Shown piece after piece: positions 39,546 to 63,989 of a stretch of 64,000 nt of DNA. The position numbers and the translations under genes were made by a program. Position 1 is the first letter of the stretch; the number at the start of each line of letters is the position of its first letter. The stretch is from the NCBI RefSeq assembly GCF_055900595.2, contig NZ_CM148325.1, one strand, 5' to 3'. The notes under the pieces were generated by a model. The model was given only the letters and a program-made list of their open reading frames with translations, made no database searches and was not told the DNA's origin.

Positions 39546-40311
39546 TGCTCTCTCCGGTTATGATCACATCGATCCCTTTCTCTTCCAGCGCCTGACGAAA
39601 CGCCGGATCGATACCTGCGTCGGTAATCAGCTTATCGACGCTTTCAAGACTACAAACCACGTTGGGGCTTTTACGGCCAAACTTCGATGAGTCAGCCATC
39701 AAAATCACTTCGCGCGCGGCATTACACATCGCTTTACTGACGGTATAGACCTCGTTGAAGGTGGTTACGCCTGCATTGAGATCGATGCCATCGGTGCCCA
39801 TAAACAATTTATCGAAGCTGAAATGTTCGAAGGCGTTCTCTGCCAGCTGCCCGTGAAATGAGGCCGATTTTTTACGAAATGTGCCGCCTGGCATCAGGAT
39901 AGTTTGTTCGTTATCCAGTTCGGATAGCGCATTGACGATGTGCAGGCTGTTGGTCATCACCGTGATGTTATTAAAGCGCGAGAGCAGGGGCACCATCTGT
40001 AATACAGTACTTCCAGCATCAAGAATGATTGAATCGCCATCATGAATAAAACTGACGGCAGCTTCTGCAATCAGCTCTTTCTTGTGGGTGTTGATGAGTG
40101 TTTTATGATCGATAGGCGGATCGGATTCCTCTTTATTCAACACCACTCCGCCATAAGTACGAATGACGGTTCCTGCATGTTCCAGAATGACCAGATCTTT
40201 GCGAATGGTTGTGCCTGTGGTGTCAAAGTATTGCGCCAATTCTTCAACCGAGCATTTCCCCTGCTTTTGCAGGTACTCCAGAATGGCGGCCTGACGCTGA
40301 CGAGGTTTCAT
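39538..40311 (-). CDS. srlR: DeoR-family glucitol operon repressor
   Basis: 257 aa DeoR HTH + sugar-binding domain. Confidence 0.92.
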
Positions 40312-40377
40312 GGGCGTGATTACCTGATTTAGGTTTCAAAATGATAACTTCGCAAGCTAGTAACATTCACAACGAAA

Positions 40378-40737
40378 TTATCCACGTTTCAGTTTAAGCG
40401 CCAATGATAGAGCATTCTGTGATAGTGGATCATGGGGAAAGATCACATCGGGCTGTAAATCAGCAGAATGCATGCCCGTAATTGCGGGAATTTTTTGCGG
40501 TCGGGCGAAGACAGTCAGTCCTTTCATAAACAAGGTGTCGACGATGCGCTGCTGATCGTCCAGGGCGATGGCGACCACGACCCGCGGTTTAAAGCGCCCG
40601 CTGGAACGGCCCACGCCAACCCGCCCTTGCTGGCAAAGTGCGTCGAAGGCGCGGTTAAAACGAGAAATTTGCCAGCCGCCTAAGGCCAGTTGCGCACACC
40701 AGGCGATAACGGCGACGGTGATGAGTGTGGATACCAT
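40378..40737 (-). CDS. srlM: glucitol operon activator GutM
   Basis: 119 aa, conserved position between srlD and srlR. Confidence 0.88.
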   Translation of the reverse strand: MVSTLITVAVIAWCAQLALGGWQISRFNRAFDALCQQGRVGVGRSSGRFKPRVVVAIALDDQQRIVDTLFMKGLTVFARPQKIPAITGMHSADLQPDVIFPHDPLSQNALSLALKLKRG

Positions 40738-40842
40738 AACTTTTCCTTAATGTAGCGGCGGAAGTCCTGTAGGCCTGATCAACGTAGCGCATCAGGCATT
40801 CTATTAGTCTCGCGGAGATCCTTAACGGATCTCCGCTGTTGA

Positions 40843-41997
<1,155 letters not shown>

Positions 41998-42007
41998 GTT
42001 TCAGCCT

Positions 42008-43545
<1,538 letters not shown>

Positions 43546-43782
43546 TTATTGTTTTATTACCAAACGGCAACCTAATCTAATCAGATTGAAAGATTTAAAA
43601 GTGTTATTTTGATCGCAAAATGAAAGATAAATATTTTAATTTGAAAGTTTGTATAAAAGGATAGTGAGGCGGATGAGTTGAGTTATGTAAAGTCCGTATC
43701 GGGCAGTGACTACCGCTTCCTTGTGCGGGGCGTGATGCTTTACCATACTTGCCCCTGGTTGAATCTGTTAAATGGACCCCTC

Positions 43783-44868
43783 ATGTTCAAGCGTCGTTAT
43801 GTAACATTGCTTCCCCTTTTTGTGTTGCTTGCCGCCTGTAGCAGCAAGCCAAAATCTACTGAGACTGAAACGACCACCGGAACGCCGTCTGGCGGCTTCC
43901 TGCTTGAGCCGCAGCACAATGTGATGCAGATGGGCGGCGATTTCGCTAACAACCCGAATGCCCAGCAGTTCATCGACAAAATGGTGAACAAACACGGTTT
44001 CAATCGTCAGCAGTTGCAGGAAATTCTCTCCCAGGCGAAACGTCTGGATTCGGTATTGCGGCTGATGGATAACCAGGCACCAACCACATCGGTGAAGCCG
44101 CCATCAGGTCCGAACGGCGCATGGCTGCGTTATCGCAAAAAATTTATTACGCCGGACAACGTGCAAAACGGCGTGGTTTTCTGGAATCAGTATGAAGACG
44201 CGTTGAATCGTGCGTGGCAGGTGTATGGTGTACCGCCGGAAATTATCGTCGGGATTATCGGCGTCGAAACTCGCTGGGGACGCGTGATGGGGAAAACTCG
44301 TATCCTCGATGCGCTGGCAACGTTGTCATTTAACTACCCACGCCGCGCGGAGTATTTCTCTGGTGAGCTGGAAACCTTCTTGCTGATGGCGCGCGACGAG
44401 CAGGACGATCCGCTCAATCTGAAAGGCTCTTTTGCCGGTGCGATGGGCTACGGTCAGTTTATGCCATCGTCTTATAAACAATATGCAGTGGATTTTAGCG
44501 GCGACGGGCATATCAACCTGTGGGATCCGGTTGATGCCATCGGTAGTGTGGCGAACTATTTTAAAGCGCACGGCTGGGTGAAAGGTGATCAGGTTGCGGT
44601 GATGGCAAACGGTCAGGCTCCAGGCTTACCGAATGGCTTCAAAACCAAGTACAGCATTTCACAACTTGCTGCAGCTGGACTAACGCCACAGCAGCCGCTG
44701 GGCAATCATCAGCAGGCCAGCTTACTGCGCCTGGATGTTGGCACCGGTTATCAGTACTGGTACGGTTTGCCGAACTTCTACACTATCACCCGTTACAATC
44801 ACAGCACCCATTACGCAATGGCCGTCTGGCAGTTAGGACAAGCCGTGGCACTGGCGCGCGTGCAGTAA
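43783..44868 (+). CDS. mltB: membrane-bound lytic murein transglycosylase B (lipoprotein)
   Basis: ORF 43678..44868 trimmed to MFKRRYVTLLPLFVLLAACSS... (361 aa), lipobox LAAC. Confidence 0.9.
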   Translation: MFKRRYVTLLPLFVLLAACSSKPKSTETETTTGTPSGGFLLEPQHNVMQMGGDFANNPNAQQFIDKMVNKHGFNRQQLQEILSQAKRLDSVLRLMDNQAPTTSVKPPSGPNGAWLRYRKKFITPDNVQNGVVFWNQYEDALNRAWQVYGVPPEIIVGIIGVETRWGRVMGKTRILDALATLSFNYPRRAEYFSGELETFLLMARDEQDDPLNLKGSFAGAMGYGQFMPSSYKQYAVDFSGDGHINLWDPVDAIGSVANYFKAHGWVKGDQVAVMANGQAPGLPNGFKTKYSISQLAAAGLTPQQPLGNHQQASLLRLDVGTGYQYWYGLPNFYTITRYNHSTHYAMAVWQLGQAVALARVQ

Positions 44869-45012
44869 CTATTTGCAAGAGGGGGGCGTGAGCTTCCCTC
44901 TGGCTAATCAGCTTTTTTCTGAATCCTCCTCGTAAAATTGCAACGCCAACACCATCTTCCTGACGAAAGTGCTATCTTGTCCGACATAAATTTTTGACTG
45001 ACAGAGGTTGTG

Positions 45013-45506
45013 ATGACTGACAGTGAACTGATGCAGTTAAGCGAACAGGTTGGGCAGGCGCTGAAAGCCCGTGGCGCAACCGTAACAACTGCCGAGTCTT
45101 GTACCGGCGGTTGGGTAGCGAAAGTGATTACCGATATTGCCGGTAGTTCCGCCTGGTTTGAACGCGGATTTGTCACCTACAGTAACGAAGCCAAAGCGCA
45201 GATGATCGGCGTACGCGAAGAGACGCTGGCGCAGCACGGCGCGGTGAGCGAACCCGTCGTGGTGGAAATGGCGATAGGCGCACTGAAAGCGGCTCGTGCT
45301 GATTATGCTGTGTCTGTCAGCGGTATCGCCGGGCCGGATGGCGGCAGTGAAGAGAAACCTGTCGGCACTGTCTGGTTTGCTTTTGCCACTGCCCGCGGCG
45401 AAGGCATTACCCGCCGGGAATGCTTCAGCGGTGACCGTGATGCGGTGCGTCGTCAGGCTACTGCGTATGCATTGCAAACCTTGTGGCAACAATTTCTACA
45501 AAACAC

Positions 45507-45510
<4 letters not shown>
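45013..45510 (+). CDS. pncC: NMN amidohydrolase PncC (CinA-like C-terminal domain)
   Basis: ~165 aa ORF immediately upstream of recA. Confidence 0.88.
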
Positions 45511-46651
<1,141 letters not shown>

Positions 46652-46670
46652 TCGTCTTGTTTGATACACA

Positions 46671-46700
46671 AGGGTCGCATCTGCGGCCCTTTTGCTTTTT
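46671..46700 (+). terminator. terminator/attenuator hairpin between recA and recX
   Basis: aagggtcgcatctgcggcccttttgcttttt: stem plus T-run. Confidence 0.6.
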
Positions 46701-46718
46701 AAGTTGTAAGGGTATGCC

Positions 46719-47219
46719 ATGACAGAATCAACATCCCGTCGCCCGGCATATGCTCGCCTGTTGGATCGTGCGGTACGCATTCTGGCGGTGCGCGATCACA
46801 GTGAGCAAGAAGTGCGACGTAAACTCGCGGCACCGATCATGGGCAAAAATGGCCCGGAAGAGATTGATGCCACGGCAGAGGATTACGAGCGTGTTATTGC
46901 CTGGTGCCATGAACATGGCTATCTCGATGACAGCCGATTTGTTGCGCGCTTTATCGCCAGCCGTAGCCGCAAAGGTTATGGACCTGCGCGTATTCGTCAG
47001 GAACTGAATCAGAAAGGTATTTCCCGCGAAGCGACAGAAAAAGCGATGCGTGAATGTGACATCGACTGGTGTGCACTGGCGCGCGATCAGGCGACGCGAA
47101 AATATGGCGAACCTTTGCCAACTGTCTTTTCAGAAAAAGTTAAGATCCAGCGTTTTCTGCTCTATCGCGGCTATCTGATGGAGGATATCCAGGATATTTG
47201 GCGAAATTTTGCCGACTGA
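46719..47219 (+). CDS. recX: RecA regulator RecX
   Basis: 166 aa, immediately downstream of recA. Confidence 0.93.
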
Positions 47220-47346
47220 ACGCATACGGTATTTTACTTCCCAGTCAAGAAAACTTATCTTATTCCCACTTTTCAGTTACCAGCCCGGCGGTTAAGACAC
47301 GCTGTAGCTGGTGGCGATATTTCGTTAGCTTGATTTCAGGATAATT

Positions 47347-49977
47347 ATGAGCAAGAGCACCGCTGAGATCCGTCAGGCGTTTCTCGACTTTTTCCATAGT
47401 AAGGGACATCAGGTAGTTGCCAGCAGCTCCCTGGTACCCCATAACGACCCAACTTTGTTGTTTACCAACGCCGGGATGAACCAGTTCAAGGATGTGTTCC
47501 TTGGGCTCGACAAGCGTAATTATTCCCGCGCTACCACTTCCCAACGCTGCGTGCGTGCGGGTGGTAAACACAACGACCTGGAAAACGTCGGTTACACCGC
47601 GCGTCACCATACCTTCTTCGAAATGCTGGGCAACTTCAGCTTCGGCGACTATTTCAAACACGATGCTATTCAGTTTGCATGGGAACTGCTGACCAGCGAA
47701 AAATGGTTTGCCCTGCCGAAAGAGCGTCTGTGGGTTACCGTCTATGAAAGCGACGACGAAGCCTACGAAATCTGGGAAAAAGAAGTAGGGATCCCGCGCG
47801 AACGTATTATTCGCATCGGCGATAACAAAGGTGCGCCATACGCATCTGACAACTTCTGGCAGATGGGTGACACTGGTCCGTGTGGCCCGTGCACCGAAAT
47901 CTTCTACGATCACGGCGACCACATTTGGGGTGGCCCTCCGGGAAGTCCGGAAGAAGACGGCGATCGCTACATTGAGATCTGGAACATCGTCTTCATGCAG
48001 TTCAACCGCCAGGCCGATGGCACGATGGAACCGCTGCCGAAGCCGTCTGTAGATACCGGTATGGGTCTGGAGCGTATTGCTGCGGTGCTGCAACACGTTA
48101 ACTCTAACTATGACATTGACCTGTTCCGCACGCTGATCCAGGCAGTAGCGAAAGTCACTGGCGCGACCGATCTGAGCAATAAATCACTGCGCGTAATCGC
48201 TGACCACATTCGTTCTTGTGCGTTCCTGATCGCGGATGGCGTAATGCCGTCCAACGAAAACCGTGGTTATGTACTGCGTCGTATCATTCGTCGCGCAGTG
48301 CGTCACGGCAATATGCTCGGCGCGAAAGAAACCTTCTTCTACAAACTGGTTGGTCCGCTGATCGACGTTATGGGATCTGCAGGTGAAGACCTGAAACGCC
48401 AGCAGGCGCAGGTTGAGCAGGTGCTGAAGACTGAAGAAGAGCAGTTTGCCCGCACGCTGGAACGCGGTCTGGCGCTGCTGGACGAAGAGCTGGCGAAACT
48501 TTCTGGCGATACGCTGGATGGCGAAACTGCTTTCCGTCTGTACGACACCTACGGTTTCCCGGTTGACCTGACGGCTGATGTTTGTCGTGAACGCAACATC
48601 AAAGTTGACGAAGCTGGTTTTGAAGCAGCAATGGAAGAGCAGCGTCGTCGTGCGCGCGAAGCCAGCGGCTTTGGTGCCGATTACAACGCAATGATCCGTG
48701 TTGACAGTGCATCTGAATTTAAAGGCTATGACCATCTGGAACTGAACGGCAAAGTGACTGCGCTGTTTGTTGATGGTAAAGCGGTTGATGCCATCAATGC
48801 AGGCCAGGAAGCTGTGGTCGTGCTGGATCAAACGCCATTCTATGCGGAATCTGGCGGTCAGGTTGGCGATAAAGGTGAACTGAAAGGCGCTAACTTCTCC
48901 TTTGCGGTGGAAGATACGCAGAAATACGGCCAGGCGATTGGTCATATCGGTAAACTTGCTGCGGGTTCTCTGAAAGTGGGCGACGCGGTGCAGGCTGATG
49001 TTGATGAGGCTCGTCGCTCTCGTATTCGTCTGAATCACTCCGCAACGCACCTGATGCACGCTGCGCTGCGCCAGGTTTTGGGTACTCATGTATCGCAGAA
49101 AGGTTCACTGGTTAACGACAAAGTGCTGCGCTTCGACTTCTCACACAACGAAGCGATGAAACCAGAAGAGATTCGTGCGGTTGAAGACCTGGTGAACGCG
49201 CAGATTCGCCGTAACTTGCCGATCGAAACCAACATCATGGATCTCGAAGCGGCGAAAGCGAAAGGTGCGATGGCGCTGTTTGGCGAGAAGTATGATGAGC
49301 GCGTACGCGTGCTGAGCATGGGCGATTTCTCCACCGAGCTGTGTGGCGGTACTCACGCCAGCCGCACCGGTGATATTGGTCTGTTCCGCATCATCTCTGA
49401 ATCGGGTACTGCTGCAGGCGTTCGTCGTATCGAAGCGGTAACCGGAGAAGGCGCTATCGCCACCGTTCATGCAGACAGCGATCGCTTAAGCGAAGTCGCA
49501 CATCTGTTGAAAGGCGATAGCAATAATCTGGCTGATAAAGTGCGCTCAGTACTGGAACGTACGCGTCAGCTGGAAAAAGAGTTACAACAGCTTAAAGAAC
49601 AAGCTGCCGCACAGGAGAGCGCAAATCTTTCCAGTAAGGCAATTGATGTTAATGGTGTTAAGCTGTTGGTTAGCGAGCTTAGCGGTGTTGAGCCGAAAAT
49701 GTTGCGTACCATGGTTGACGATTTAAAAAATCAGCTGGGGTCGACAATTATCGTGCTGGCAACGGTAGCCGAAGGTAAGGTTTCTCTGATTGCAGGCGTA
49801 TCTAAGGACGTCACAGATCGTGTGAAAGCAGGGGAACTGATTGGTATGGTCGCTCAGCAGGTGGGCGGCAAGGGTGGTGGACGTCCTGACATGGCGCAAG
49901 CCGGTGGTACGGATGCTGCGGCCTTACCTGCAGCGTTAGCCAGTGTGAAAGGCTGGGTCAGCGCGAAATTGCAATAA
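47347..49977 (+). CDS. alaS: alanine--tRNA ligase
   Basis: 876 aa, class II aaRS. Confidence 0.96.
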
Positions 49978-50211
49978 TATAAGCGTCAGGCAATGCCGTG
50001 GACTCGCTTCACGGCATTCGCATTAACGCTATCGACAACGATAAAGTCAGGTTGAAGTTGTGTATATCGGCTAAACTTAGGTTTAACAGAATGTAATGCC
50101 ATGACTGCTTACATGTAATGTGTTTGTCATTGCTTACTTTTTGGCGTTATATGATGGATAATGCCGGGATACAGAGAGACCCGACTCTTTTAATCTTTCA
50201 AGGAGCAAAGA

Positions 50212-50397
50212 ATGCTGATTCTGACTCGTCGAGTTGGTGAGACCCTCATGATTGGGGATGAGGTCACCGTGACAGTTTTAGGGGTAAAGGGCAACCAGGT
50301 ACGTATTGGCGTAAATGCCCCGAAGGAAGTTTCTGTTCACCGTGAAGAGATCTACCAGCGTATCCAGGCTGAAAAATCCCAGCAGTCCAGTTACTAA
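50212..50397 (+). CDS. csrA: carbon storage regulator CsrA
   Basis: 61 aa, [40 protein letters not shown]... Confidence 0.96.
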
Positions 50398-50711
50398 TCT
50401 TTCCGCGTCTCATCTTTATCGGTGAGACGCACCCTCAAAATTCCTCCTTCACTCCATTTCTTTTCGCGTTATTCCCGTTCATTCAACTTAAGTCTCCATT
50501 TTTTTGCATTACTGCTATCTGTCAGACCTCCGTTTTTCTGTTGATAAAACACTCTTTTTGACGTTTTTACAGACTAATTGAGCGTGAAGTGTGCAAACGA
50601 TAAAAGTGTGGGAAAAATTGTTTGACTTATAAGTCTCAGAAAGTAATATGTGCGCCACGCAGCGACGATGAGCGATAAACAAGTTCTTCGAAGCACTCGT
50701 AAGAGGCGTGT

Positions 50712-50804
50712 GGTGAGGTGGCCGAGAGGCTGAAGGCGCTCCCCTGCTAAGGGAGTATGCGGTCAAAAGCTGCATCCGGGGTTCGAATCCCCGCCTCACC
50801 GCCA
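50712..50804 (+). tRNA. serV: tRNA-Ser (anticodon GCU)
   Basis: 93 nt with long variable arm, anticodon loop CU-GCU-AA, 3' CCA encoded. Confidence 0.93.
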
Positions 50805-50807
50805 TTT

Positions 50808-50884
50808 GCATCCGTAGCTCAGCTGGATAGAGTACTCGGCTACGAACCGAGCGGTCGGAGGTTCGAATCCTCCCGGATGCACCA
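50808..50884 (+). tRNA. argV: tRNA-Arg (anticodon ACG), copy 1
   Basis: 77 nt GCATCCGTAGCTCAGCTGGATAGAGTACTCGGCTACGAACCGAG...CACCA; 3 nt after serV. Confidence 0.93.
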
Positions 50885-50947
50885 TATTCTACGAAATCTT
50901 CAGCAATGAAGGTGTCGAAGAGGTGGCGGTACTAACCGCAAGCACCA

Positions 50948-51019
50948 GGGAGGATAACGTTGCTTTAGCAACGGCCCGAAGGGCGAGCCGTAAGGCGAGT
51001 AATCCTCCCGGATGCACCA
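50948..51019 (+). other. tRNA-like structured spacer element ending in a copy of the tRNA-Arg 3' end
   Basis: 72 nt: stem GGGAGGA...TCCTCCC, internal hairpins, terminal aatcctcccggatgcacca identical to tRNA-Arg 3' 19 nt. Confidence 0.45.
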
Positions 51020-51083
51020 TCTCTTACTTGATACGGCTTTAGTAGCGGTATCAAAAAATCTGCAGTAAAGTAAGTTTCCCGAT

Positions 51084-51160
51084 GCATCCGTAGCTCAGCT
51101 GGATAGAGTACTCGGCTACGAACCGAGCGGTCGGAGGTTCGAATCCTCCCGGATGCACCA
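51084..51160 (+). tRNA. argY: tRNA-Arg (anticodon ACG), copy 2
   Basis: 77 nt, identical to copy 1. Confidence 0.92.
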
Positions 51161-51262
51161 TATTCTCCGTAATCATCAGTGATGATGGTTAAGATGGATT
51201 TTCTTATTTGATATGGCTTTAGTAGCGGTATCAATATCAGCAGTAAAATAAGTTTTCCCGAT

Positions 51263-51339
51263 GCATCCGTAGCTCAGCTGGATAGAGTACTCGGCTACGA
51301 ACCGAGCGGTCGGAGGTTCGAATCCTCCCGGATGCACCA
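51263..51339 (+). tRNA. argZ: tRNA-Arg (anticodon ACG), copy 3
   Basis: 77 nt, identical to copy 1. Confidence 0.92.
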
Positions 51340-51549
51340 TATTCTCCGTAACCTTCAGCAATGAACGTATCGAAGAGGTAGCGGTACTAACCGCAGGCAC
51401 CATCTCCTCCAAAAAATCCCCTTCAAAAATATTTCATTTCTAAATAACTATTTTATCCATTTCCTGAATATTCTTCTCCTTCGCCATCAGCGACAAAATC
51501 AAGCAATTACGCTAAAGTAGCGTCATATTTTTCGACTTGCGAGAAGACC

Positions 51550-52116
51550 ATGTACGAGCGTTATGCAGGTTTAATTTTTGATATGGATGGCACAATCCTG
51601 GATACGGAGCCTACGCACCGTAAAGCGTGGCGCGAAGTATTAGGGCACTACGGTCTTCAGTACGATGTTCAGTCGATGATTGCGCTTAATGGCTCGCCCA
51701 CGTGGCGCATTGCTCAGGCGATTATTGAACTGAATCAGGCCGATCTCGACCCGCATGCGCTGGCGCGTGAAAAAACAGAAGCAGTCAGAAGCATGTTACT
51801 CGATAGCGTCGAACCACTCCCCCTTGTTGAAGTGGTGAAAAGCTGGCACGGACGTCGACCAATGGCTGTAGGAACGGGGAGTGAAAGCGCCATCGCTGAG
51901 GCACTGCTAACGCACCTGGGATTACGCCGTTATTTTGACGCCGTCGTTGCTGCCGATCACGTCAAACATCATAAACCTGCGCCAGACACATTTTTGTTGT
52001 GCGCGCAGCGTATGGGCGTGCAACCAACGCAGTGTGTGGTCTTTGAAGATGCTGATTTCGGTATTCAGGCGGCCCGTGCTGCAGGCATGGACGCTGTGGA
52101 TGTTCGCTTGCTGTGA
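51550..52116 (+). CDS. yqaB: HAD-family sugar phosphatase YqaB
   Basis: 188 aa with HAD motif I FDMDGTILDT. Confidence 0.9.
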   Translation: MYERYAGLIFDMDGTILDTEPTHRKAWREVLGHYGLQYDVQSMIALNGSPTWRIAQAIIELNQADLDPHALAREKTEAVRSMLLDSVEPLPLVEVVKSWHGRRPMAVGTGSESAIAEALLTHLGLRRYFDAVVAADHVKHHKPAPDTFLLCAQRMGVQPTQCVVFEDADFGIQAARAAGMDAVDVRLL

Positions 52117-52541
52117 GTGAAGCTTTATCGCTTTTCTCGTTGTTTGCCAGTAGTTTCCTCAGCGCTACACTATTACCCGGTAATTCCGAAGTCGTGCTGG
52201 TTGCAATGTTGCTTTCCGGGGTAAGTCATCCCTAGGTTTTAGTGTTAACAGCAATAATGGGTAATAGCCTTGGAGGGTTAACTAACGTTATTCTTGGGCG
52301 TTTCTTTCCATTGCGTAAAACATCGCGCTGGCAAGAGAAAGCTACTGGTTGGCTGAAACGCTATGGTGCAGTCACGCTATTATTAAGCTGGATGCCCGTG
52401 GTTGGCGATTTACTGTGTCTGTTAGCGGGATGGATGCGCATCTCCTGGGGGCCAGTAATCTTTTTTTTGTGTCTTGGTAAAGCGTTACGTTATGTTGCAG
52501 TTGCAGCAGCGACCGTTCAGGGCATGATATGGTGGCACTAA
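52113..52541 (+). pseudogene. yqaA: DedA-family inner membrane protein YqaA interrupted by in-frame amber (TAG at 52233-52235)
   Basis: GTG at 52113 opens VSEALSLFSLFASSFLSATLLPGNSEVVLVAMLLSGVSHP-TAG-VLVLTAIMGNSLGG..., continuing in the same frame into ORF 52242..52541. Confidence 0.75.
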
Positions 52542-52586
52542 TTGTAGGCCTGCACACATGGTCACCATTACAGTTATGCTAATTAA

Positions 52587-54170
<1,584 letters not shown>

Positions 54171-54175
54171 CAGAA

Positions 54176-54250
54176 AAGAAAAAGGCCACTCGTGAGTGGC
54201 CAAAATTTCATCTCTGAATTCAGGGATGATGATAACAAATGCGCGTCTTT
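54176..54250 (-). ncRNA. micA: small regulatory RNA MicA (SraD)
   Basis: Minus strand reads GAAAGACGCGCATTTGTTATCATCATCCCTGAATTCAGAGATGAAATTTTGGCCACTCACGAGTGGCCTTTTT; between gshA and luxS, divergent from luxS. Confidence 0.85.
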
Positions 54251-54319
54251 CATATACTCAGACTCGCCTGGGAAGAAAGAGTTCAGAAAATTTTTAAAAA
54301 AATTACCGGAGGTGGCTAA

Positions 54320-54835
54320 ATGCCGTTGTTAGATAGCTTCACAGTCGATCATACCCGGATGGAAGCGCCTGCAGTTCGGGTGGCGAAAACAATGAACACC
54401 CCGCATGGCGACGCAATCATCGTGTTCGATCTGCGCTTCTGCGTGCCGAACAAAGAAGTGATGCCAGAAAGAGGGATCCATACCCTGGAGCACCTGTTTG
54501 CTGGTTTTATGCGTAACCATCTTAACGGTAATGGCGTAGAGATTATCGATATCTCGCCAATGGGCTGCCGCACCGGTTTTTATATGAGTCTGATTGGTAC
54601 GCCAGATGAGCAGCGTGTCGCTAATGCCTGGAAAGCGGCAATGGAAGACGTGCTGAAAGTGCAGGATCAGAATCAGATCCCGGAACTGAACGTCTACCAG
54701 TGTGGCACTTACCAGATGCATTCGTTGCAGGAAGCGCAGGATATTGCGCGTAGCATTCTGGAGCGCGATGTACGCATTAACAGTAATGAAGAACTGGCAC
54801 TGCCAAAAGAGAAGTTGCAGGAATTGCACATCTAG
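54320..54835 (+). CDS. luxS: S-ribosylhomocysteine lyase LuxS
   Basis: 171 aa; HTLEHL metal-binding motif. Confidence 0.96.
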
Positions 54836-54852
54836 TCAGTTTAAGCAGAAGA

Positions 54853-54884
54853 GGCCGGGCTGGTGAAATCACCGCCCGGCTTTT
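54853..54884 (+). terminator. luxS rho-independent terminator
   Basis: ggccgggctggtgaaatcaccgcccggc + TTTTATT; convergent gene stop codon abuts it. Confidence 0.7.
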
Positions 54885-54885
54885 A

Positions 54886-55998
54886 TTACCTGTCAGTCAC
54901 CCGATATTCCACGCTATGTGCTTCATCAGGTTGAGGAACTTCCAGCCTTGAGGCCATCCGCATCACGACCGCTTCAGGAACGGCATACTCGCGCCTGGCA
55001 TTTTGCTGCTTCCATTGCGCCCACGGTACTTCCAGATAAACGATTTTTACTCGTGCACCGTAAGCCGTAAATAGACTGATGAGCTGGCTACGCAACTGGC
55101 GGGTAATGTTCGTTGCATTCCAGATGAACGGCTTCTTCTGGCGTAAAAAAACGCGCGCTTCTTCTTTTGCCTGTTGCACAATACGCCCGGTGGCGGTTTT
55201 GTCGTCCGGACTGGCATTGATTCGCCGCCGCATATCATCAAGGCTGATAACGTTCACTCTCTGGCACTGTTCACTGATAAAGCGATCTTTGCCCATACCC
55301 GGTAAACCACACAGCAAAATAACCTCAAAAGATTCAGCCTCCCAGGGAACAAAATCAGGAGAACTTTGTTCATGGGTCAGGTAATGCCAGCGTGCGGAAT
55401 CCGAAGCGAATGAACGCACTTTTCCCCAGCATTGTTGCTCCTGGCAAAATAGCTCGAACAGATCGATGCGTTCCAGCATTGATTGCTGATCATGACAATG
55501 GCGACCAAGCAGATCGGCACGAGCAAGCAAAGCGAGCAGACGTGTGTCGATACGCATTGCAGCCGTGAGCAGCAAACGCTCCGGTTCCGGACGTTCCAGT
55601 AACCATAGCGGTAACCCATGCAGACGCACCAGTGCAACAATTTGCTCGCGTAGCACGAACGGCGTCGGGATATCGCGCCATAAAATTTGTCGGGCCGTCA
55701 ATTCCCCCCGACGAGCATGACCAGGGGACTGAATACGTCCGTTTTCCTGCACGGTAGTACTGCGCTTTTCAACGTCATGCAATAACGCCGCCGCCCATAA
55801 AATTTCCTGCTGCTGAGCGGGGAGTTGCTGAAACTCAGCCATCGCAACGAGTGCGTTCAGCACCATTTCAGTATGCACACCAACGTCGCCTTCACCATGA
55901 TGCTCCGGGTCTTGCGGCGTGTTATGCATATCCTCAACCCAGCTAAAACGCTGGCGTAGCGTCGACCAGCGTTTGTCGTCGGTAAGTTGCCAAATCAT
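54886..55998 (-). CDS. bifunctional HD-domain phosphoesterase / P-loop polynucleotide kinase-like protein (HD-Pnk type)
   Basis: 370 aa; N-terminal HD motifs ([18 protein letters not shown]), C-terminal P-loop-like GLPGMGKD; start overlaps upstream ligase stop (ATGA). Confidence 0.75.
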
Positions 55999-56702
55999 GA
56001 CTGTTCTCCATAAGCGAACTCATGGGCCATCCGCGCCCGTCGCCAGTGGCGTTTCCAGTGCTCGGTGGTTTTGACATGATTTTTGCGCACATACTTGAAG
56101 ACGTTATGCGAAAAGTCAGCGACGGAAAACGCATCACGATTCCGGCTGACAATGCCTTCCAGCGTACAGGGTTGCCCGGTTTGTGTATCCCAGGGATCGA
56201 ACGCGCCGCGCGCATTGGTCAGCGCCAGAAAATCACGTTGCCAGCTTTTTTCATCATTCCCCGGCTGCGGGCCGGAGATTTCGGGAACGCAGGGGAAATC
56301 AAACAGAGCGGCGTAAAACTGCACCTCTTCCCAGCTCAGCCACATATCCTGGCAGCGAACGGCAAACAGGTAAAAGTCCTGTTCCAGGGCGCGGTATTCA
56401 ATGGAATGAACGGCGTAGAGATTTTCACCAAACAGTTCCAGATCGCCGAGATCGTTTTTCAGCAGTTGCCAACGCTGGCGAATTTTATAAGTCCATGCCG
56501 ACTGCGTAGGCGCAGCATGGGAACGGGCAAACACGCCGTAGCGGTTAAGGCAGTTATTTTCGCCGTCGAGTTTTTCTGTATGCACCAATTGCGTGATGGC
56601 CTGTAAATCCTGCCAGTAATCGGCATTAATACGGTCATCGCTGGTGGTGCCAGGGGAGAAAGGATAATGCCAGGTTCTCCCGTATTTCCGTTGGGTATTC
56701 AT
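55995..56702 (-). CDS. ATP-dependent polynucleotide (RNA/DNA) ligase-like nucleotidyltransferase
   Basis: 235 aa; motif I KLDG, motif IV-like LEGIV, motif V-like FKYVRK; first gene of two-gene operon. Confidence 0.75.
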
Positions 56703-56754
56703 AATAATCCATTATTTTGTGTGTAATAAATGTACGCCCGCGAGGGTGCGAGTT

Positions 56755-56922
56755 ATGGGGTTAAAAGAAAAATGTGAGTATCACCCGCGAAAGCGAGGGC
56801 GAAGGAAAAAGAGAATTAACAACCTGAGCGAATGCTCAGAACCGGTTAATGGTGAATGGAAGAGTTTGGGGCGGCGAAAAGATACACCGTTTGAGATGAT
56901 AAAACAACCGTTTACAGAATGA
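56755..56922 (+). CDS. possible small basic protein (55 aa), speculative
   Basis: ATG preceded by GAGGG 8 nt upstream; product MGLKEKCEYHPRKRGRRKKRINNLSECSEP...; divergent from ligase operon; no homology support. Confidence 0.25.
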   Translation: MGLKEKCEYHPRKRGRRKKRINNLSECSEPVNGEWKSLGRRKDTPFEMIKQPFTE

Positions 56923-56924
56923 GC

Positions 56925-56952
56925 AAATAAAAAGGGAGCCGCAGCTCCCTTT
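56925..56952 (-). terminator. emrB rho-independent terminator
   Basis: Minus strand: gggagctgcggctccc followed by TTTTT directly after emrB stop. Confidence 0.7.
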
Positions 56953-56959
56953 GACAACC

Positions 56960-58498
56960 TTAGTGCGCACCGCCTCCGCCGCCACCTGCGCCAAATGGCG
57001 GTTTAGCAAACCACACCAGCCCCAGCAGGACGAGGAATATCCCGGCTGACATCCAGAAGATCTCATTGGCGGAAATAATCAGCCCCTGATTGGTGATCTG
57101 CTGGGCAATCCAGCCTGATGCCTGTTGTTGCGTCATCCCCAGCCCTTCCAGTTGGCTGTACATCGCCTGAGCGTTCGGGTTAAACGGGTTTACCGACTCG
57201 GTTAACTGTGCGTGGTGCATCGACTCGCGGTTAGTCCACATGGTGGTGGTGATGGATGTGCCGATAGACCCCGCCAGCGTTCGCGTAAAGTTAGAGAGGC
57301 TCGATGCCGCCGCCAGTCGTTCCGGTGGCAAACCAGACAGCGTAATGGTGGTCAGCGGCATAAAGAAGCAGGCCACTGCGAAGCCCTGGATAAACTGCGG
57401 CCAGGCCGACGCACCAAAATCCATACCCGGTTCAAAGGTATAGGCACGCCAGTAGAAGCAGACGGCATACATAATAAAGCTGAAGGTTACCAGCCGCCGC
57501 ATATCCAGTTTATGCGCGAAGCGGCCGATAATCGGCGACAGGATCACCGGAATAATCCCTACCGGCGCAGAGGCCAAACCTGCCCAGGTCGCCGTGTAAC
57601 CGTAGACCTCCTGCAACAACTGCGGCAGCAGAACAATCGCGCCGAAGTAGAGCATATACGCGAGGCTGATACACAAGCAGCCGATGGTGAAGTTGCGCGA
57701 CTTAAACAACGACAGATCGACTATCGGGTTATCGTCGGTCAGCTCCCAGACAATCAGGAAGCAGATAGCCACCACCGCCACCACGGTGAGGATGATTATT
57801 TCCTGCGATGAGAACCAGTCCAGCTCTTTACCGCGGTCGAGCATAATCTGCAGGCTGCCGATACCAATCACCAGCAGTGCCAGCCCCACGGCATCAATCC
57901 GCCGCCGTTCGGTGCGGGTTTCGCGTCCGCGCAGGGTTTGCAGTGTCATCAACACCACCGCCACGCCAATCGGCACGTTGATGAAGAATATCCAGCCCCA
58001 GTGGTAATTATCGCTGATATAACCGCCGAGGATCGGGCCGCAAATTGGCGCGACAATCACCGTCATCGACCACAACGCCAGCGCGATCGAGCGTTTGGCT
58101 GGCGGGTAGTTATTCAGCAATAGACTTTGCGAAAGCGGGATCAATGGCCCGGCGACAATCCCCTGAATCACGCGGAAGAAGATCAGCATATTCAGGCTGC
58201 TGGAGACACCACATGCCCACGATGCAATAGCGAAGGCGATGGTCGACCAGAGGAACAGCTTCACTTCCCCAACACGTTTTGCCAGCCAGCCGGTAAGCGG
58301 GATCGAGATGGCATTCGCCACCCCGAAAGAAGTGATTACCCACGTTCCCTGGCTGAGCGATGAGCCCAGATTCCCGGCGATAGTGGGGATCGCCACGTTA
58401 GCAATGGTGGAGTCCAGCACCTGCATGAATGTCGCTAGTGACAGCGCAATCGTCATAATGACCAGTTGCGCGCCTTCCAGCGGTTTTTGCTGTTGCAT
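56960..58498 (-). CDS. emrB: multidrug efflux MFS transporter EmrB
   Basis: ORF trimmed to MQQQKPLEGAQLVIMTIALSLATFM... (512 aa). Confidence 0.94.
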   Translation of the reverse strand: MQQQKPLEGAQLVIMTIALSLATFMQVLDSTIANVAIPTIAGNLGSSLSQGTWVITSFGVANAISIPLTGWLAKRVGEVKLFLWSTIAFAIASWACGVSSSLNMLIFFRVIQGIVAGPLIPLSQSLLLNNYPPAKRSIALALWSMTVIVAPICGPILGGYISDNYHWGWIFFINVPIGVAVVLMTLQTLRGRETRTERRRIDAVGLALLVIGIGSLQIMLDRGKELDWFSSQEIIILTVVAVVAICFLIVWELTDDNPIVDLSLFKSRNFTIGCLCISLAYMLYFGAIVLLPQLLQEVYGYTATWAGLASAPVGIIPVILSPIIGRFAHKLDMRRLVTFSFIMYAVCFYWRAYTFEPGMDFGASAWPQFIQGFAVACFFMPLTTITLSGLPPERLAAASSLSNFTRTLAGSIGTSITTTMWTNRESMHHAQLTESVNPFNPNAQAMYSQLEGLGMTQQQASGWIAQQITNQGLIISANEIFWMSAGIFLVLLGLVWFAKPPFGAGGGGGGAH

Positions 58499-58514
58499 TA
58501 CACGCACCTCTGGA

Positions 58515-59687
58515 TTAGCCAGCGTTAGCTTTTACGATATCGTCGATCAGTTTATTGACAGGAGCCAGGCTTATTTCACGCGCGGTGCTCACCGCTACCG
58601 GCGTAGAACGTACTTTATTTGCCAGTACCTGACCGTCACGGTTAGTGGTATTGACGCTCACCAGCGTGGATAAACCGATACGCAGCGGGTATTGTTCCAG
58701 CTGTTTTTGGTCCAGTTCAATACGTACAGGCAGACGCTGAACAACTTTTATCCAGTTACCAGTGGCATTTTGCGCCGGAAGCAGCGAGAACGCGCTACCT
58801 GTCCCCATATCCAGACCAACCACTTTACCGGTGTATTTCACATCATCGCCGTAAATATCCGTGGTGATGGTGACCGGCTGACCGATGCGCATATTGGCAA
58901 TCTGCGTCTCTTTAAAGTTGGCATCCACCCACATATTGGTGGCTGGAACGACCGCCATCAGCGGCGTCGTTGGGCTAATTTGCGCCCCAGGCTGTACTGC
59001 TCGGCGGGAGACATAACCGGTCATCGGACTGACAATACGGGTACGCTCCAGCGCCAGCCAGGCGTTACGTACTTCGGTGGCAGCCTGTTGCACGGCAGGC
59101 TGATCTTCCAGTTTAGTCCCCAGAATCATCGCCTGATTGGCATTGTATTGTTGAATGGCGACATCCAGTTGCGCCTGGGCACTGGTCACCGCGTCGCGGG
59201 CGTGTTGCAGCTCTTCGCGACCAATCAGGTTGGCATTGCCCAGCGGCACACGGCGGTTGTAGTCGCTTTGTGCTTTCGCGAGGGCGATTTTTTGCACCTC
59301 AATATTCGCCTGCAACTGTTTGCTGTTAATCATCAGCTGGTGGGTTTGGCGCACGCTGGAAGCCAGTGCCGTTTTGGCTTTTTCAAACGCCTGGCGAGCA
59401 TCTGTCGGGTCGAGAGTGACCAGCACATCGCCTTCTTTTACAAAATCGGTGTTATCGGCCCAGACTTTCGTCACGCTGCCAGACACCTGAGACATAATTT
59501 GAATCTGATTCCCTGCCACGTATGCGTCATCGGTTTCTTCGAAATGACGCAGTACTAAAAACCAATAAATCCCTATCGCTACGGCAATAATTATAAAGAG
59601 CAAGGTGAGAAGCAGGAGCAGACGCTTACGTTTGCCGCTCTTCTTTACCGGTTGCTGCGGGGTTTGAGTCTCCGCATTTGCGCTCAT
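58515..59687 (-). CDS. emrA: multidrug efflux periplasmic adaptor EmrA
   Basis: ORF trimmed to MSANAETQTPQQPVKK... (390 aa). Confidence 0.94.
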   Translation of the reverse strand: MSANAETQTPQQPVKKSGKRKRLLLLLTLLFIIIAVAIGIYWFLVLRHFEETDDAYVAGNQIQIMSQVSGSVTKVWADNTDFVKEGDVLVTLDPTDARQAFEKAKTALASSVRQTHQLMINSKQLQANIEVQKIALAKAQSDYNRRVPLGNANLIGREELQHARDAVTSAQAQLDVAIQQYNANQAMILGTKLEDQPAVQQAATEVRNAWLALERTRIVSPMTGYVSRRAVQPGAQISPTTPLMAVVPATNMWVDANFKETQIANMRIGQPVTITTDIYGDDVKYTGKVVGLDMGTGSAFSLLPAQNATGNWIKVVQRLPVRIELDQKQLEQYPLRIGLSTLVSVNTTNRDGQVLANKVRSTPVAVSTAREISLAPVNKLIDDIVKANAG

Positions 59688-59813
59688 ATTGTTCTCCACG
59701 ATCTTCTTAACTCATCGGCTGAGCCGACCTGCTTGCCAAAAAGGCCAGCATGTTGCGATGCTGGCCAGTCATTTTTTCTGTTATAAATCTGGATTTTTGA
59801 GCGAGATGACGCG

Positions 59814-60344
59814 TTAGCTCATCGCTTCGAGAACCACACCGTCTTGTTCCATCTGGTCGAGACGGGAGAGCAATTTGCGGGTGATTTGCTCGAGCTGATC
59901 TTTTTCTGTTGTGCTGAGCGCGGACCAGAGTTGATGCAGGCAATTATGCTGCGGTGGTAAAACTTCGCGCAAAAACTCGTGACCTTTTTCCGTTAATTGC
60001 AGATGCAGGCAGCGGCGATCGTTATCGCTTTCACGACGTTCGATCCAACCGCGTTTTTCCAGTTCATCGGCAATACGCGTCGCGTTGGTACGGGATGATC
60101 CAAGAGCACAACTCAATTCAGAAGGCTGAATACTGTGGTTTTCCTGAGACTCCAGCGTAATCAACGCCATAAACAACGTCTCGTTAATCCCCTGAGCCTT
60201 CAGCATTTTATTGCGGTTCTCCAGCAGCTTGCTTTGCATATGCATGCAAAGACGGGTCAGAAGGATCTCCTGATAAGGAAAATCTTCGTGGCGGCTGGCG
60301 CGAAATTTTAGCATTTGTTCAATGGGCGTAAACGAACTATCCAT
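59814..60344 (-). CDS. emrR: MarR-family repressor EmrR (MprA)
   Basis: 176 aa, first gene of emrRAB. Confidence 0.94.
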
Positions 60345-60434: not shown

Positions 60435-60770
60435 TTATATAATCGCCATCACTTTCCAGGCGAGCCCATAGGCCAGCGCACTAAGCAGTGTTGGGATGAT
60501 AATGCTGCGTGTTTTATAGAAACTGGCACCCAGTACCGCGAAGCCGACCAGAGTGGGCACGAAACGGCGTGTATCGTGCATCACTTCTGGTGCGGTAGAG
60601 ACAACCAGCAGAGCGCATATCGAGGCGATGCCAATGGTGTCGAGCAAAATACCTACCGCGCCACGTTTGGTTGGGCGGGCATTACCCACACGCAGGCGCA
60701 GCGGCAAATAGCGGAAGCAATAATTCGCCGCGCCAACCAGTAACCCAAGCAGCAGAACCTCATAGCTCAT
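60435..60770 (-). CDS. ygaH: L-valine exporter small subunit YgaH
   Basis: 111 aa membrane protein, overlaps ygaZ end. Confidence 0.9.
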
Positions 60771-61497
60771 CGGGCGCTCCTTGCCAGAATGCCTGGATTA
60801 ACGCAGTGAGGCAGCCACAGACAATGCCTGCCAGAATGGCGACGGGAATAGAAAATAGCGTTACGCCTGCAAGGGCACCAACTAACGCTGCGGTAACGCA
60901 AAGAGATTGTTTGCGCTGGAAAGATGCGAGCAGGAAACTCATAAAGAGTGCCGGAAGCATAAAACCTAATGCTGCTTCAACGGCGGGATATCCTTGCAGC
61001 AAGCCGCTGCCGGAGAATGCCCCTATTACCGTACCAAATACCCACGATGACCATGAACTGAAGGCAATGCCGATCATCCAGTTCTCGCTCCAGCGGCGAT
61101 TATTGCGTACCAGTTTTGCGGTTGCGGCGGCAAAAACCTCATCCGTCAGGCCAAACGCCCACAGGGCGGTTTTCGATTTTTGCAGACGCTGAATAATACG
61201 GCTACGCAGTGACGGGCCATACAAAACATGGCGAACATCCATTGCCATGACGGTCAGTGCAGCAACCCACAAACTACTCCCGGCTGCCAGCATCGCGGTA
61301 ATGACGAACTGGCTCGCGCCTGCATAAATGATGCAGGAGAAAAAAACGCTTTCGAGAGGAGAGAATCCCAGACGGGTCGCATTCAGACCGAACGCAAAGG
61401 CCACCGGAATATAACTAATAACAATCGGTAAACTGTCTTTGCATCCTTCCATGAAGGTCGCCGAACCAGGAGCAGGCTGTGGAGTAGGGCTTTCCAT
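60760..61497 (-). CDS. ygaZ: L-valine exporter subunit YgaZ (AzlC family)
   Basis: 245 aa membrane protein. Confidence 0.9.
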
Positions 61498-61620
61498 AGA
61501 GTGTACGCTTAACGATTGTTAATATTATAAATAGACTGAATGAATATCTTAACCTTATCAGACTGATGGGCTTCTTAACACCCTTATAAGTGTAAAGCCA
61601 CGAAAACGGTTGCTGATTGC

Positions 61621-62805
61621 TTAATTTGCGGCTTCCTGACGATGAAAACCTCGCCACCAGACCAGTAAGTTAACCAGGGCAATCGTCGCGCCAGCCAGAC
61701 AAACGCCAGACCAACCGCCATGTTGCCAGGCTGAGGCTGAAATTAGCGAACCGGCGGCACCGCCAATAAAGTAGCTGGTCATGTAACCTGCGGTCAGGCG
61801 ATTACGCGCATCAGGGTGTATTCGATAAATTACCGTCTGGTTAGTGATATGCACGCCCTGCACGGTGAGGTCCAGCACCAGGATGCCGATAATCAAGGCC
61901 AGTACGGAAGTGTGGCCAAACCAGATAGCAAGCCATGAAAGTAACAGCAGCAGCAGACCGAAAGTTGTGGTGTGGTGCGATTTGCCCTTATCGGCAAAAC
62001 CGCCCGCCGGACGAGCGCCCAACGCTCCGGCAGCTCCCGCGAGTCCAAACAGACCAATGACGCCATCGCTGTAGTTAAAAGGTGGAGCGGCGAGCAAAAA
62101 GGCCATTGAGGTCCAGAGAATGCTGAAGTTGGCAAAGGTCAGGCAGCCCAGCAACGCGCGGGTGCGCAGAATTTTATCGCTGATAAACATACTGAAAACG
62201 GAACCTAACAACTGTGGATAGTTGAGGTGGGTTTCTGATTTCATCTGCGGCAGGCCGCGCCATAACGCCAGCGCCATCAGTGCCATTAACACCGAGGCAA
62301 CCCAAAAGACGGTGCGCCAGCCGCCGAGGTTTGCCAGCAACCCGGCAACGGTTCGTGCCAGCAAGATCCCCAACAGCAGCCCGCTCATAATGGTGCCGAC
62401 CACTTTGCCGCGTTTGTCCGGTGAAGCCAGCGTCGCTGCCAGCGGAACCAGAATTTGTGCCACGACCGAGAATAAACCGGTTAATGCCGTACCGAGGATC
62501 ATCATCGCCAGCGACTGACTGCTGGCGGTAATCAACATACCGCCCGCTGCCAGTAAGGTCATCGAGACAATCAGGCGGCGGCGTTCAAACATATCACCGA
62601 GGGGAACAAGAAACAGCAGACCTGCGGCATAGCCCAACTGCGCGGCGGTAACAATAAAGCCCGCCGAACTGGCGGAAAGGGAAAAGTTACGCGCGATGGT
62701 GTCGAGTAATGGCTGGGCGTAATAGTTACTGGCTACCGCCAGACCGGTGGCGATAGACATCAGCACGATCAGTGCCGGGCTAAGCTCATGATTAGGTTTA
62801 GTCAT
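61621..62805 (-). CDS. ygaY: MFS transporter YgaY, intact
   Basis: 394 aa, ~12 TM MFS; uninterrupted frame. Confidence 0.85.
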   Translation of the reverse strand: MTKPNHELSPALIVLMSIATGLAVASNYYAQPLLDTIARNFSLSASSAGFIVTAAQLGYAAGLLFLVPLGDMFERRRLIVSMTLLAAGGMLITASSQSLAMMILGTALTGLFSVVAQILVPLAATLASPDKRGKVVGTIMSGLLLGILLARTVAGLLANLGGWRTVFWVASVLMALMALALWRGLPQMKSETHLNYPQLLGSVFSMFISDKILRTRALLGCLTFANFSILWTSMAFLLAAPPFNYSDGVIGLFGLAGAAGALGARPAGGFADKGKSHHTTTFGLLLLLLSWLAIWFGHTSVLALIIGILVLDLTVQGVHITNQTVIYRIHPDARNRLTAGYMTSYFIGGAAGSLISASAWQHGGWSGVCLAGATIALVNLLVWWRGFHRQEAAN

Positions 62806-62906
62806 TATTTTTGTTCATCAGGTGATGATTAAGCTGGAAATCAATAATAGCGGATGTTGATGAATATGGGATGAAAGATAGATTGTTGAAATGTGCGGTG
62901 TGGTTT

Positions 62907-62986
62907 GTAGGCATGATAAGACGCGGCCGCATCGCATCAGGCATTGTGTACAGAGCGGCGGATGAGGCAAAAGCGCCTTATCCGCC
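62907..62986. repeat. REP-like palindromic elements between ygaY and proX
   Basis: tgtaggcatgataagacgcggccgcatcgcatcaggca ... gcggatgaggcaaaagcgccttatccgcc. Confidence 0.6.
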
Positions 62987-62996
62987 CGAATAAAAA

Positions 62997-63989
62997 TTAC
63001 TTCTGCGCTGCCAGCGCCTCATTCACCCAGCCATCGAACTGCTGCTGGTGGGCTTTGATCCAGCCATCAACGTGTCCCTGAATATCGCCTTCTGAGGCTT
63101 TGCCGTCATGCATGATGGCGTTCTGGGCGTTAATGTCTGCCACCGGCAACTGCATAATGGCAAACAGTTTCGCTGCTGCCGGGTTTTTCTCGGCCCAGGC
63201 TTTGTTGGCAACGATATGCATGGTACTGACCGGGAAGCCGTAATTCGCGCCATTCGGCAGTTTGGTATCGGCATTTTTATCGCCCGGCAGTGCGGAGAAC
63301 GGCACCTGCAACCAGACCACATCTTTCCCCGGTTTCAGTTCGTTACTCACCCAGTACGGCGTCCAGGTGTAGTAAAACACCGGCTTACCCTCTTTGTAAC
63401 GACTGATGGTGTCAGCCATCATCGCTGCGTAGTTCCCCTGATTATGCGTCACGGTATTGGTCAGTCCATACGCGGCAAGCTGGTGGTTGATCGCACCTTC
63501 GCAGCCCCAGCCTGGGTTACAGCCGGTTAAATCCGCTTTACCGTCGCCGTTGGTATCGAACAGTTTGGCGATCTTCGGATCTTTAAGTTGCGCGATGTTG
63601 GTAATTTTATACTGGTCGGCGGTTTTCTTATCGATCAGGTAACCCTGTGCCGCGCCGTTAACAAATACTCCTTCACGATAAAATTTCTTATCGCCACCGG
63701 CAGCTTCGTACATGTTGTCATGCAGTGGCGTCCAGTTCACGGCGGTGAAGGTTGCATCGCCGGAAGCAAGCGAGGTGTAGCCAACGTTGTAATCCACTTC
63801 GCTGGGTTTATTGACGGTATAACCTAATTTCTCCAGCGCGCGGCTGACCAGCAGCGTCTGGAAAGTTTCTTCGGTGATGGTGCTCTGAACCGGATTAACA
63901 GTAATGCCTTTGCCCGGCAGGTCGGCAGCAAAAGTTTGTGTAGAGATAAGCGTGGCAAACGCTGTCGCAAAAAGTACGCTATGTCGCAT
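62997..63989 (-). CDS. proX: glycine betaine/proline ABC transporter periplasmic binding protein ProX
   Basis: 330 aa with signal peptide; proW would lie beyond the window end. Confidence 0.93.

Follow-up and report, generated by a model that had tools for sequence, protein, structure and literature searches.

An open ygaY gene of Escherichia coli, frameshifted in K-12, probably encodes a YnfM-family MFS transporter

The window analysed here is a stretch of 64,000 nucleotides from contig NZ_CM148325.1 (RefSeq assembly GCF_055900595.2), and the region around ygaY corresponds to the proU-ygaY-ygaZH-emrRAB stretch of Escherichia coli. The ygaY coding sequence occupies positions 61621..62805 on the minus strand, with an ATG start codon at 62805-62803 and a TAA stop codon at 61623-61621, as delimited by the six-frame list of open reading frames, the Pfam match, the AlphaFold2 model and the identity of a PGAP-annotated CDS. 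It forms an uninterrupted frame of 394 codons with no internal stop; a preliminary description of this DNA had announced an intact gene for a 394-aa protein here, and its coordinates and length were exact. The gene is flanked by proX (62997-63989, minus strand) on one side and by ygaZ (60760-61497, minus strand) on the other, and ygaZ is followed by ygaH (60435-70, minus strand). The PGAP protein WP_032303629.1 (NZ_CP098223.1) has the same start and length as the window ygaY, and that genome is 100% identical here. Identity is 100% over the 1.6 kb surrounding ygaY in E. coli Z0117EC0005, where PGAP annotates the product as a 394-aa 'MFS transporter'.

The window allele is ~3% divergent from those of other E. 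coli. We considered whether ygaY might be a recombinant outlier within this chromosome and rejected this, since the adjacent 20 kb diverge to the same degree. The lineage as a whole is rare: over window positions 40000-63000, only 8 of 5426 complete E. coli genomes are at least 99% identical, among them Z0117EC0005 (from a dog, Korea) and AST85 (human, Japan), and the remaining complete genomes reach at most ~97% identity, at ygaY and over the neighbouring 20 kb alike.

In K-12, the same proX/ygaZ locus carries the ygaY pseudogene (b2681/b2680, formerly ygaX and ygaY; UniProt P76628; TC 2.A.1.36.3). The MG1655 gene (NZ_CP032667.1) is a CDS of 1178 bp that RefSeq flags as 'frameshifted'. Global alignment with the window gene gives 96.6% nucleotide identity across 1178 aligned bases and a single 7-bp gap at gene nucleotides 255-261 (window 62545-62551). 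Being 7 bp short, the K-12 copy runs into a stop at codon 89, whereas the window copy is open. Past the stop, the other ~300 codons can be read in a different frame and nearly match the window protein; once the frame is restored, the residues differ only at S366A. Neither the K-12-type junction (CTTACT joined to GGCGGCATG) nor the codon-89 stop occurs in the window, which reads CTTACTGGCAGCGGGCGGTATG at this site, with no stop. The preliminary description had called the K-12 gene a pseudogene and proposed an alignment as the check; the RefSeq flag, the 7-bp deletion, the codon-89 stop and the literature all agree with it, and the K-12 gene is neither intact nor identical. Published accounts mention the 'crypticity of ygaY' and its in-frame stops (Rashid et al.), employ delta-ygaY as a pseudogene control (Price et al.) or still list the two K-12 fragments as 'ygaXY' (Shimada et al.), and the 'ygaY pseudogene locus' of W3110 serves as a cassette integration site in metabolic engineering.

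The site of the lesion coincides with a short tandem repeat. In the window this repeat is imperfect, GGCAGCG GGCGGTA (62538..62551, minus strand; gene nucleotides 255-268), and spans codons 85-90 (L-A-A-G-G-M). BL21(DE3) has a perfect 7-bp tandem at the same place, CT-GGCGGCA-GGCGGCA-TG, and K-12 keeps one GGCGGCA: its ygaY is dead through the loss of one 7-bp unit. The deletion has several equivalent placements owing to the repeat, and, judged from the repeat itself, replication slippage would most simply account for it. The three mismatches between the two window units should make this allele less prone to the same slippage. Other alleles occur at the site as well. Combat11I9 carries a different perfect tandem (two copies of GCGGCAT), and FDAARGOS_1253 (fetched locus 272-1453) reads GGCAGCAGGCGGC.

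We then asked how widely the K-12 deletion is distributed. Of 5426 complete E. coli genomes, 353 match a 44-base probe for its junction over the whole length (E<=1e-10); at a laxer cutoff 2450 genomes match in part, since 29-31 bases of the probe also occur in the common allele. All 60 of the 60 carriers sampled from the 353 are K-12 laboratory derivatives, including MG1655, BW25113, C600, JM109, TG1, MC4100, S17-1, J53, EPI300 and O16:H48. In EMG2, a stock close to the original K-12, the span is likewise shortened to 1594 bp. The deletion thus arose once and is limited to the K-12 lineage, where EMG2 has it already. The 7-bp tandem could in principle be a recurrent on/off slippage site, against which the census speaks, with the deletion found in one lineage and traceable to a single event.

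Outside K-12, the open form prevails. We translated ygaY from 11 other E. coli genomes, namely eight taken at even steps down the match ranking plus Z0117EC0005, BL21(DE3) and Combat11I9, and found an intact frame in all 11, ten of 394 aa and one of 393 aa. The shorter protein belongs to FDAARGOS_1253 and results from an in-frame 3-bp loss, a case which shows that small indels in ygaY are tolerated only if the frame is kept. Only 13 of the 5426 complete genomes cover less than 80% of the interval around ygaY. The weakest match comes from PCP06021 (NZ_CM129877.1, Galapagos seawater; fetched locus 2196-2658), where a one-off deletion runs from within ygaY through the whole of ygaZ into the start of ygaH, taking the greater part of ygaY and fusing its first ~53 codons to ygaH; the valine exporter YgaZH is thereby lost together with YgaY. 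The preliminary description had set this strain apart from K-12 as one that retains the intact gene. The allele is indeed intact, but so is ygaY in essentially all E. coli; it is K-12, not this strain, that is unusual.

[quoted passage not shown] It matches Pfam MFS_1 (PF07690) with 143.6 bits against a cutoff of 33.4 (E 9.4e-42), which, combined with an open frame of this length, lies far beyond chance. YgaY belongs to a large family: a sensitive search through 1.84 billion representative proteins identified 1147 clusters at E<=1e-30, many of which match over the full length with 37-57% identity. Of these, 100 were aligned with YgaY for the analysis of conservation and for AlphaFold2 modelling. 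The resulting model is all-helical, has a pLDDT of 95.5 and a pTM of 0.93, and superposes on crystal structures of 12-TM MFS proteins with TM-scores of 0.84-0.90 (Foldseek against the PDB). DSSP joins TM11 and TM12 of the model, and a hydropathy minimum, WQHGGW (residues 360-365), divides them. The predicted cytoplasmic loops hold 3, 4, 3 and 3 lysines and arginines plus the RRR at 75-77, and the periplasmic loops 0-1 each. The structure model and the loop charges superseded a simple Kyte-Doolittle scan, which gave 10 merged segments. The superposition, the hydropathy split and the positive-inside pattern together yield 12 TM segments, the number given in the preliminary description. As the model shows, YgaY is predicted to fold as a canonical two-bundle 12-TM MFS protein with N-in/C-in orientation. 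It thus combines the MFS_1 profile, 12 TM segments in two bundles with cytoplasmic termini, and a variant of motif A.

MFS motif A, G-x3-D-[RK]-x-G-R-[RK], lies in the TM2-TM3 loop. The corresponding cytoplasmic loop of YgaY, G62-LLFLVPLGDMFERRR-77 (62575..62622, minus strand), was located in the family alignment, where P68 is conserved in 100%, D71 and G62 in 98% and R75 in 82% of sequences. Its core reads P68-L-G-D71-M-F-E-R75-R-R, with E74 in place of the central glycine, and aligns with GLLFTGPLSDAIGRK of YnfM. The arginine of motif B is absent from TM4. DHA1 antiporters carry motif C, G-x8-G-x3-G-P-x2-G-G, in TM5; TM5 of YgaY is conserved and glycine-rich (G137-TIMS-G142-LLL-G146-ILLA-R151-TVA-G155) and lacks this motif, having neither G-P nor G-G.

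Two charged residues within the membrane stand out as functional candidates. D312 (codon GAC, 61870..61872, minus strand) is a membrane-embedded acidic residue of TM10 (model helix 301-329) and is conserved in 87% of the family, within a subfamily signature LLD312-x-G-x-Q-x-x-H-x-x-N-Q; R336 is conserved too. By analogy with NorA, whose essential acidic TM10 residue (D307N mutant, PDB entry titles) occupies a comparable position, D312 may be considered the best candidate for a protonation or proton-coupling site. R151 in TM5 (codon CGA, 62353..62355, minus strand) is conserved in 99% of the family and also in YnfM, a pattern that would suit either a partner residue or a substrate contact.

Among characterized transporters, YnfM is the closest to YgaY in sequence. 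A table based on TCDB lists YgaY (P76628) as TC 2.A.1.36.3 in the YnfM family, with the function 'Unknown' (PMC5417439), in line with the preliminary description, which had left the substrate unspecified. YgaY aligns with YnfM over the full length (26% identity, 80 bits, E 8e-21), far better than with SotB (24 bits) or MdfA (undetected) by sequence. Both the TCDB listing and this closer relationship to YnfM than to other characterised MFS proteins place YgaY in the YnfM family (acriflavin-sensitivity, TC 2.A.1.36). YgaY and YnfM (TC 2.A.1.36.1) have in common the TM1 motif Y-x-x-Q-P-x-L, the motif-A loop (GLLF..PL.D), R151, W163, H319 and W365, whereas D312, Q316, N322 and Q323 of TM10 as well as R336 are replaced in YnfM. 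The genes differ in their surroundings as well: ynfM adjoins the divergent LysR regulator ynfL, whereas ygaY has no adjacent regulator.

Reported activities within the YnfM family diverge. E. coli YnfM is reported to be a CCCP-sensitive, proton-dependent exporter of the dicarboxylate glutarate in BL21(DE3), and deletion of ynfM alone abolishes detectable glutarate export in this strain (PMC12622518), whereas the Salmonella orthologue CuiT was reported to be a copper importer (PMC13101709); the family is therefore functionally mixed. Since BL21(DE3) has an intact ygaY, which does not replace YnfM in glutarate export, glutarate is unlikely to be the YgaY substrate.

In its fold, YgaY also resembles the DHA1 carriers. 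The top Foldseek matches are SotB (6kkl; TMq 0.85, TMt 0.90), MdfA (4zp0; 0.83) and NorA (8ttf; 0.80); the SotB superposition has an rmsd of 2.3-2.7 A, and SotB, MdfA and NorA together range from 2.3 to 4.0 A over about 380 columns. SotB/YdeA, MdfA and NorA (DHA1, TC 2.A.1.2) have the same 12-TM two-bundle fold as YgaY, but only 15-18% sequence identity to it. Searches of solved structures by sequence gave only weak matches (GlcP N-domain, 3e-8; SotB, 2e-4). YgaY scores far below the cutoffs of the DHA1-type models, with 50.7 against 200.9 bits for TIGR00710, 64.2 against 401 for PRK03545, 50 against 303 for PRK11102 and 37.6 against 479 for EmrD, and no DHA1 subfamily cutoff is reached by any of the 101 family members (YgaY and its 100 relatives). 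With the curated models so far under cutoff and motif C missing, membership in canonical DHA1 fails, and YgaY should not be filed there in spite of its fold. Across the same set of 101 proteins, no curated NCBIfam subfamily model of any kind reaches its cutoff. We conclude that YgaY represents a distinct, uncharacterised subfamily beside YnfM, a placement that the present analysis adds.

Although the direction of transport is not readable from the fold, the relatives permit a graded proposal. YgaY would be a rocker-switch carrier with alternating access, powered by the proton-motive force, and would more probably act in the export or antiport of a small polar or anionic metabolite than in import. 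Export is favoured by analogy, since the nearest structural relatives (SotB, MdfA and NorA) are DHA1 antiporters and YnfM is an exporter. Alternatively, YgaY may be an importer, either a proton symporter or a metal-uptake carrier, a reading that we consider a minority option of some weight. It agrees with the lack of the canonical antiporter motif C, with the copper import reported for CuiT, and with the best partial NCBIfam match, the aromatic acid/H+ symporter subfamily TIGR00895 (78.8 bits), which covers the N-domain only. However, the matches that extend over the full length in sequence or structure are all exporters (SotB and the SotB-type model PRK03545, Cmx/CmrA, Bcr and Bcr/CflA, MdfA and NorA), E. 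coli YnfM itself exports, and no catabolic genes or substrate-binding regulator lie beside ygaY or three of its distant homologues. These homologues (57%, 50% and 45% identity) have unrelated neighbourhoods, with ferritin/EamA/MCP, pheA/mutY/OYE and flagellar genes, respectively, and no adjacent regulator or pathway genes. An attempt to derive the substrate from gene neighbourhood was abandoned, as ygaY and the three homologues have no common signal. In the searchable literature, we found no experiment on any intact YgaY and no phenotype of the intact allele; biological work on ygaY concerns the K-12 pseudogene, which serves for integration or labelling or is studied within the proU chromatin.

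The arrangement of the locus bears on whether the putative exporter YgaY acts alone or with its neighbours. It could form a single export unit for branched-chain amino acids with YgaZ and YgaH, an L-valine exporter of the AzlC/AzlD type. The one-strand order proX-ygaY-ygaZ-ygaH is conserved in every E. coli genome examined, and the name 'the yga operon' has been used (PMC10656529). Against this, a sigma-70 promoter, TTAAGA-17-TATAAT (61524..61552, minus strand; consensus scan), lies in the 123-bp gap between ygaY and ygaZ, and its hexamers are identical to those of the constitutive RpoD promoter of ygaZH mapped by genomic SELEX (PMC3946193). ygaZH thus has a promoter of its own, and coupling of YgaY to YgaZH is possible but unsupported. 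In addition, the three distant YgaY homologues have no AzlC/AzlD neighbours. K-12 YgaZH exports valine though YgaY is missing. Taken together, a joint unit appears improbable.

Upstream of ygaY, the same scan found no consensus promoter in the proX-ygaY spacer; with 2 matches against 1.7 expected in shuffled sequences it is uninformative except for the ygaZ promoter, which fits the published data. No strong Shine-Dalgarno sequence was found in front of ygaY. A mini-ORF of six codons (ATG AAC AAA AAT AAT GAC TAA; 62799-62819, minus strand) overlaps the ygaY start out of frame and could be due to chance or a leader for translational coupling. The spacer also holds a REP-type palindromic element (62910..62987), matched by Rfam naRNA4 on both strands, at best with 55.9 bits and thus slightly under the gathering score of 59.5; a search for riboswitches and sRNAs near ygaY returned only this REP/naRNA4-like element. 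The spacer varies in length, with about 100 additional bp in IAL7254 and E66, and in other strains it diverges beyond window position ~62899.

The conservation of the protein indicates that it is under selection. Between the window allele and frame-restored K-12 ygaY there are 39 synonymous differences and 1 nonsynonymous difference (dS 0.14, dN 0.0012, dN/dS 0.008), and the ten E. coli alleles of the same length differ from the window at 30-48 nucleotides (with Z0117EC0005 identical) and at 0-5 amino acids. Such values point to strong purifying selection on the protein. As the K-12 remnant has not yet decayed, the loss in K-12 must be recent. Orthologues of 394 aa are present in Shigella, E. 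fergusonii, E. albertii, E. marmotae and Citrobacter, the last at 93% identity. ygaY is thus best explained as a conserved core-genome gene of Escherichia and Citrobacter. The preliminary description had called the window allele functional and ancestral. The first term gains indirect support from the substitution pattern, which suggests a working protein; the second is borne out by the outgroups, since orthologues are intact across them and the deletion occurs only in the K-12 lineage, making the open form ancestral and K-12 the exception.

These data also bear on the idea that the intact gene is cryptic, being silent or dispensable and open only by chance or recent ancestry, so that K-12 lost nothing with it. 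K-12 grows normally without ygaY, and both the neutral delta-ygaY control and the integration site in W3110 fit such a view. In K-12, transcript levels are low, and chromatin bridges that depend on H-NS/StpA link the locus to the proU regulatory element; H-NS binding implies that ygaY expression may be low or conditional, and the promoter scan yielded no consensus match upstream of the gene. However, a dN/dS of 0.008 at a dS of 0.14, with so few amino acid changes per nucleotide change, would be impossible without selection on the protein. The length of 394 aa is kept as far as Citrobacter, and apart from the K-12 lineage the gene is missing only through rare single deletions like that of PCP06021. 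We therefore regard a silent gene as very improbable and retain the reading of a selected transporter gene. The converse polarity, in which K-12 would be ancestral and the window allele would stem from a frame-opening 7-bp duplication, draws on nothing more than the formal symmetry of indels and is refuted by the long, open form in all outgroup species, by the ~300 codons beyond the codon-89 stop, which in a different frame still specify the conserved protein, and by the restriction of the short form to one laboratory lineage.

The best overall explanation, to which we assign a probability of roughly 0.85, is that the window carries the intact wild-type ygaY, encoding a 12-TM MFS secondary transporter of the YnfM family, and that the K-12 copy is broken. 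In natural E. coli, YgaY may further transport a specific physiological substrate and contribute measurably to fitness, a long shot in our estimate; such a role would have stayed hidden because K-12, the strain used for almost all functional genomics, carries a null allele and delta-ygaY even serves as a neutral control there.

The finding of an intact gene is in itself ordinary and matters little, as it represents the norm of the species. Intact ygaY is annotated in public records for thousands of genomes, and the K-12 lesion was documented before; the present analysis adds the mechanism of the lesion and its restriction to K-12, a measure of how strong purifying selection is, and the place of the subfamily beside YnfM. 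For a conserved and selected core-genome transporter of this kind, screens based on K-12, such as the Keio collection and K-12 transporter libraries, cannot reveal the function, and its study needs BL21, W, Nissle or natural isolates. Likewise, the 'ygaY pseudogene locus' is a neutral site in K-12 and W3110, but in BL21 and other chassis an insertion there would knock out a live gene.

Elsewhere in the window, a two-gene insert lies between luxS and emrB (54886-56702, minus strand). One gene encodes a protein of 370 aa with a weak, sub-threshold HD-domain match and an AAA_33 P-loop kinase-like domain, and the other, which overlaps it by 4 bp, a 235-aa protein of the RNA_ligase family. The pair has no match among the PADLOC defence systems, and in its predicted domains it resembles an RNA-repair cassette for end-healing and sealing. 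The insert is accessory; window positions 40000-60000 are covered to at least 80% in one piece by only 35 of 5426 E. coli genomes.
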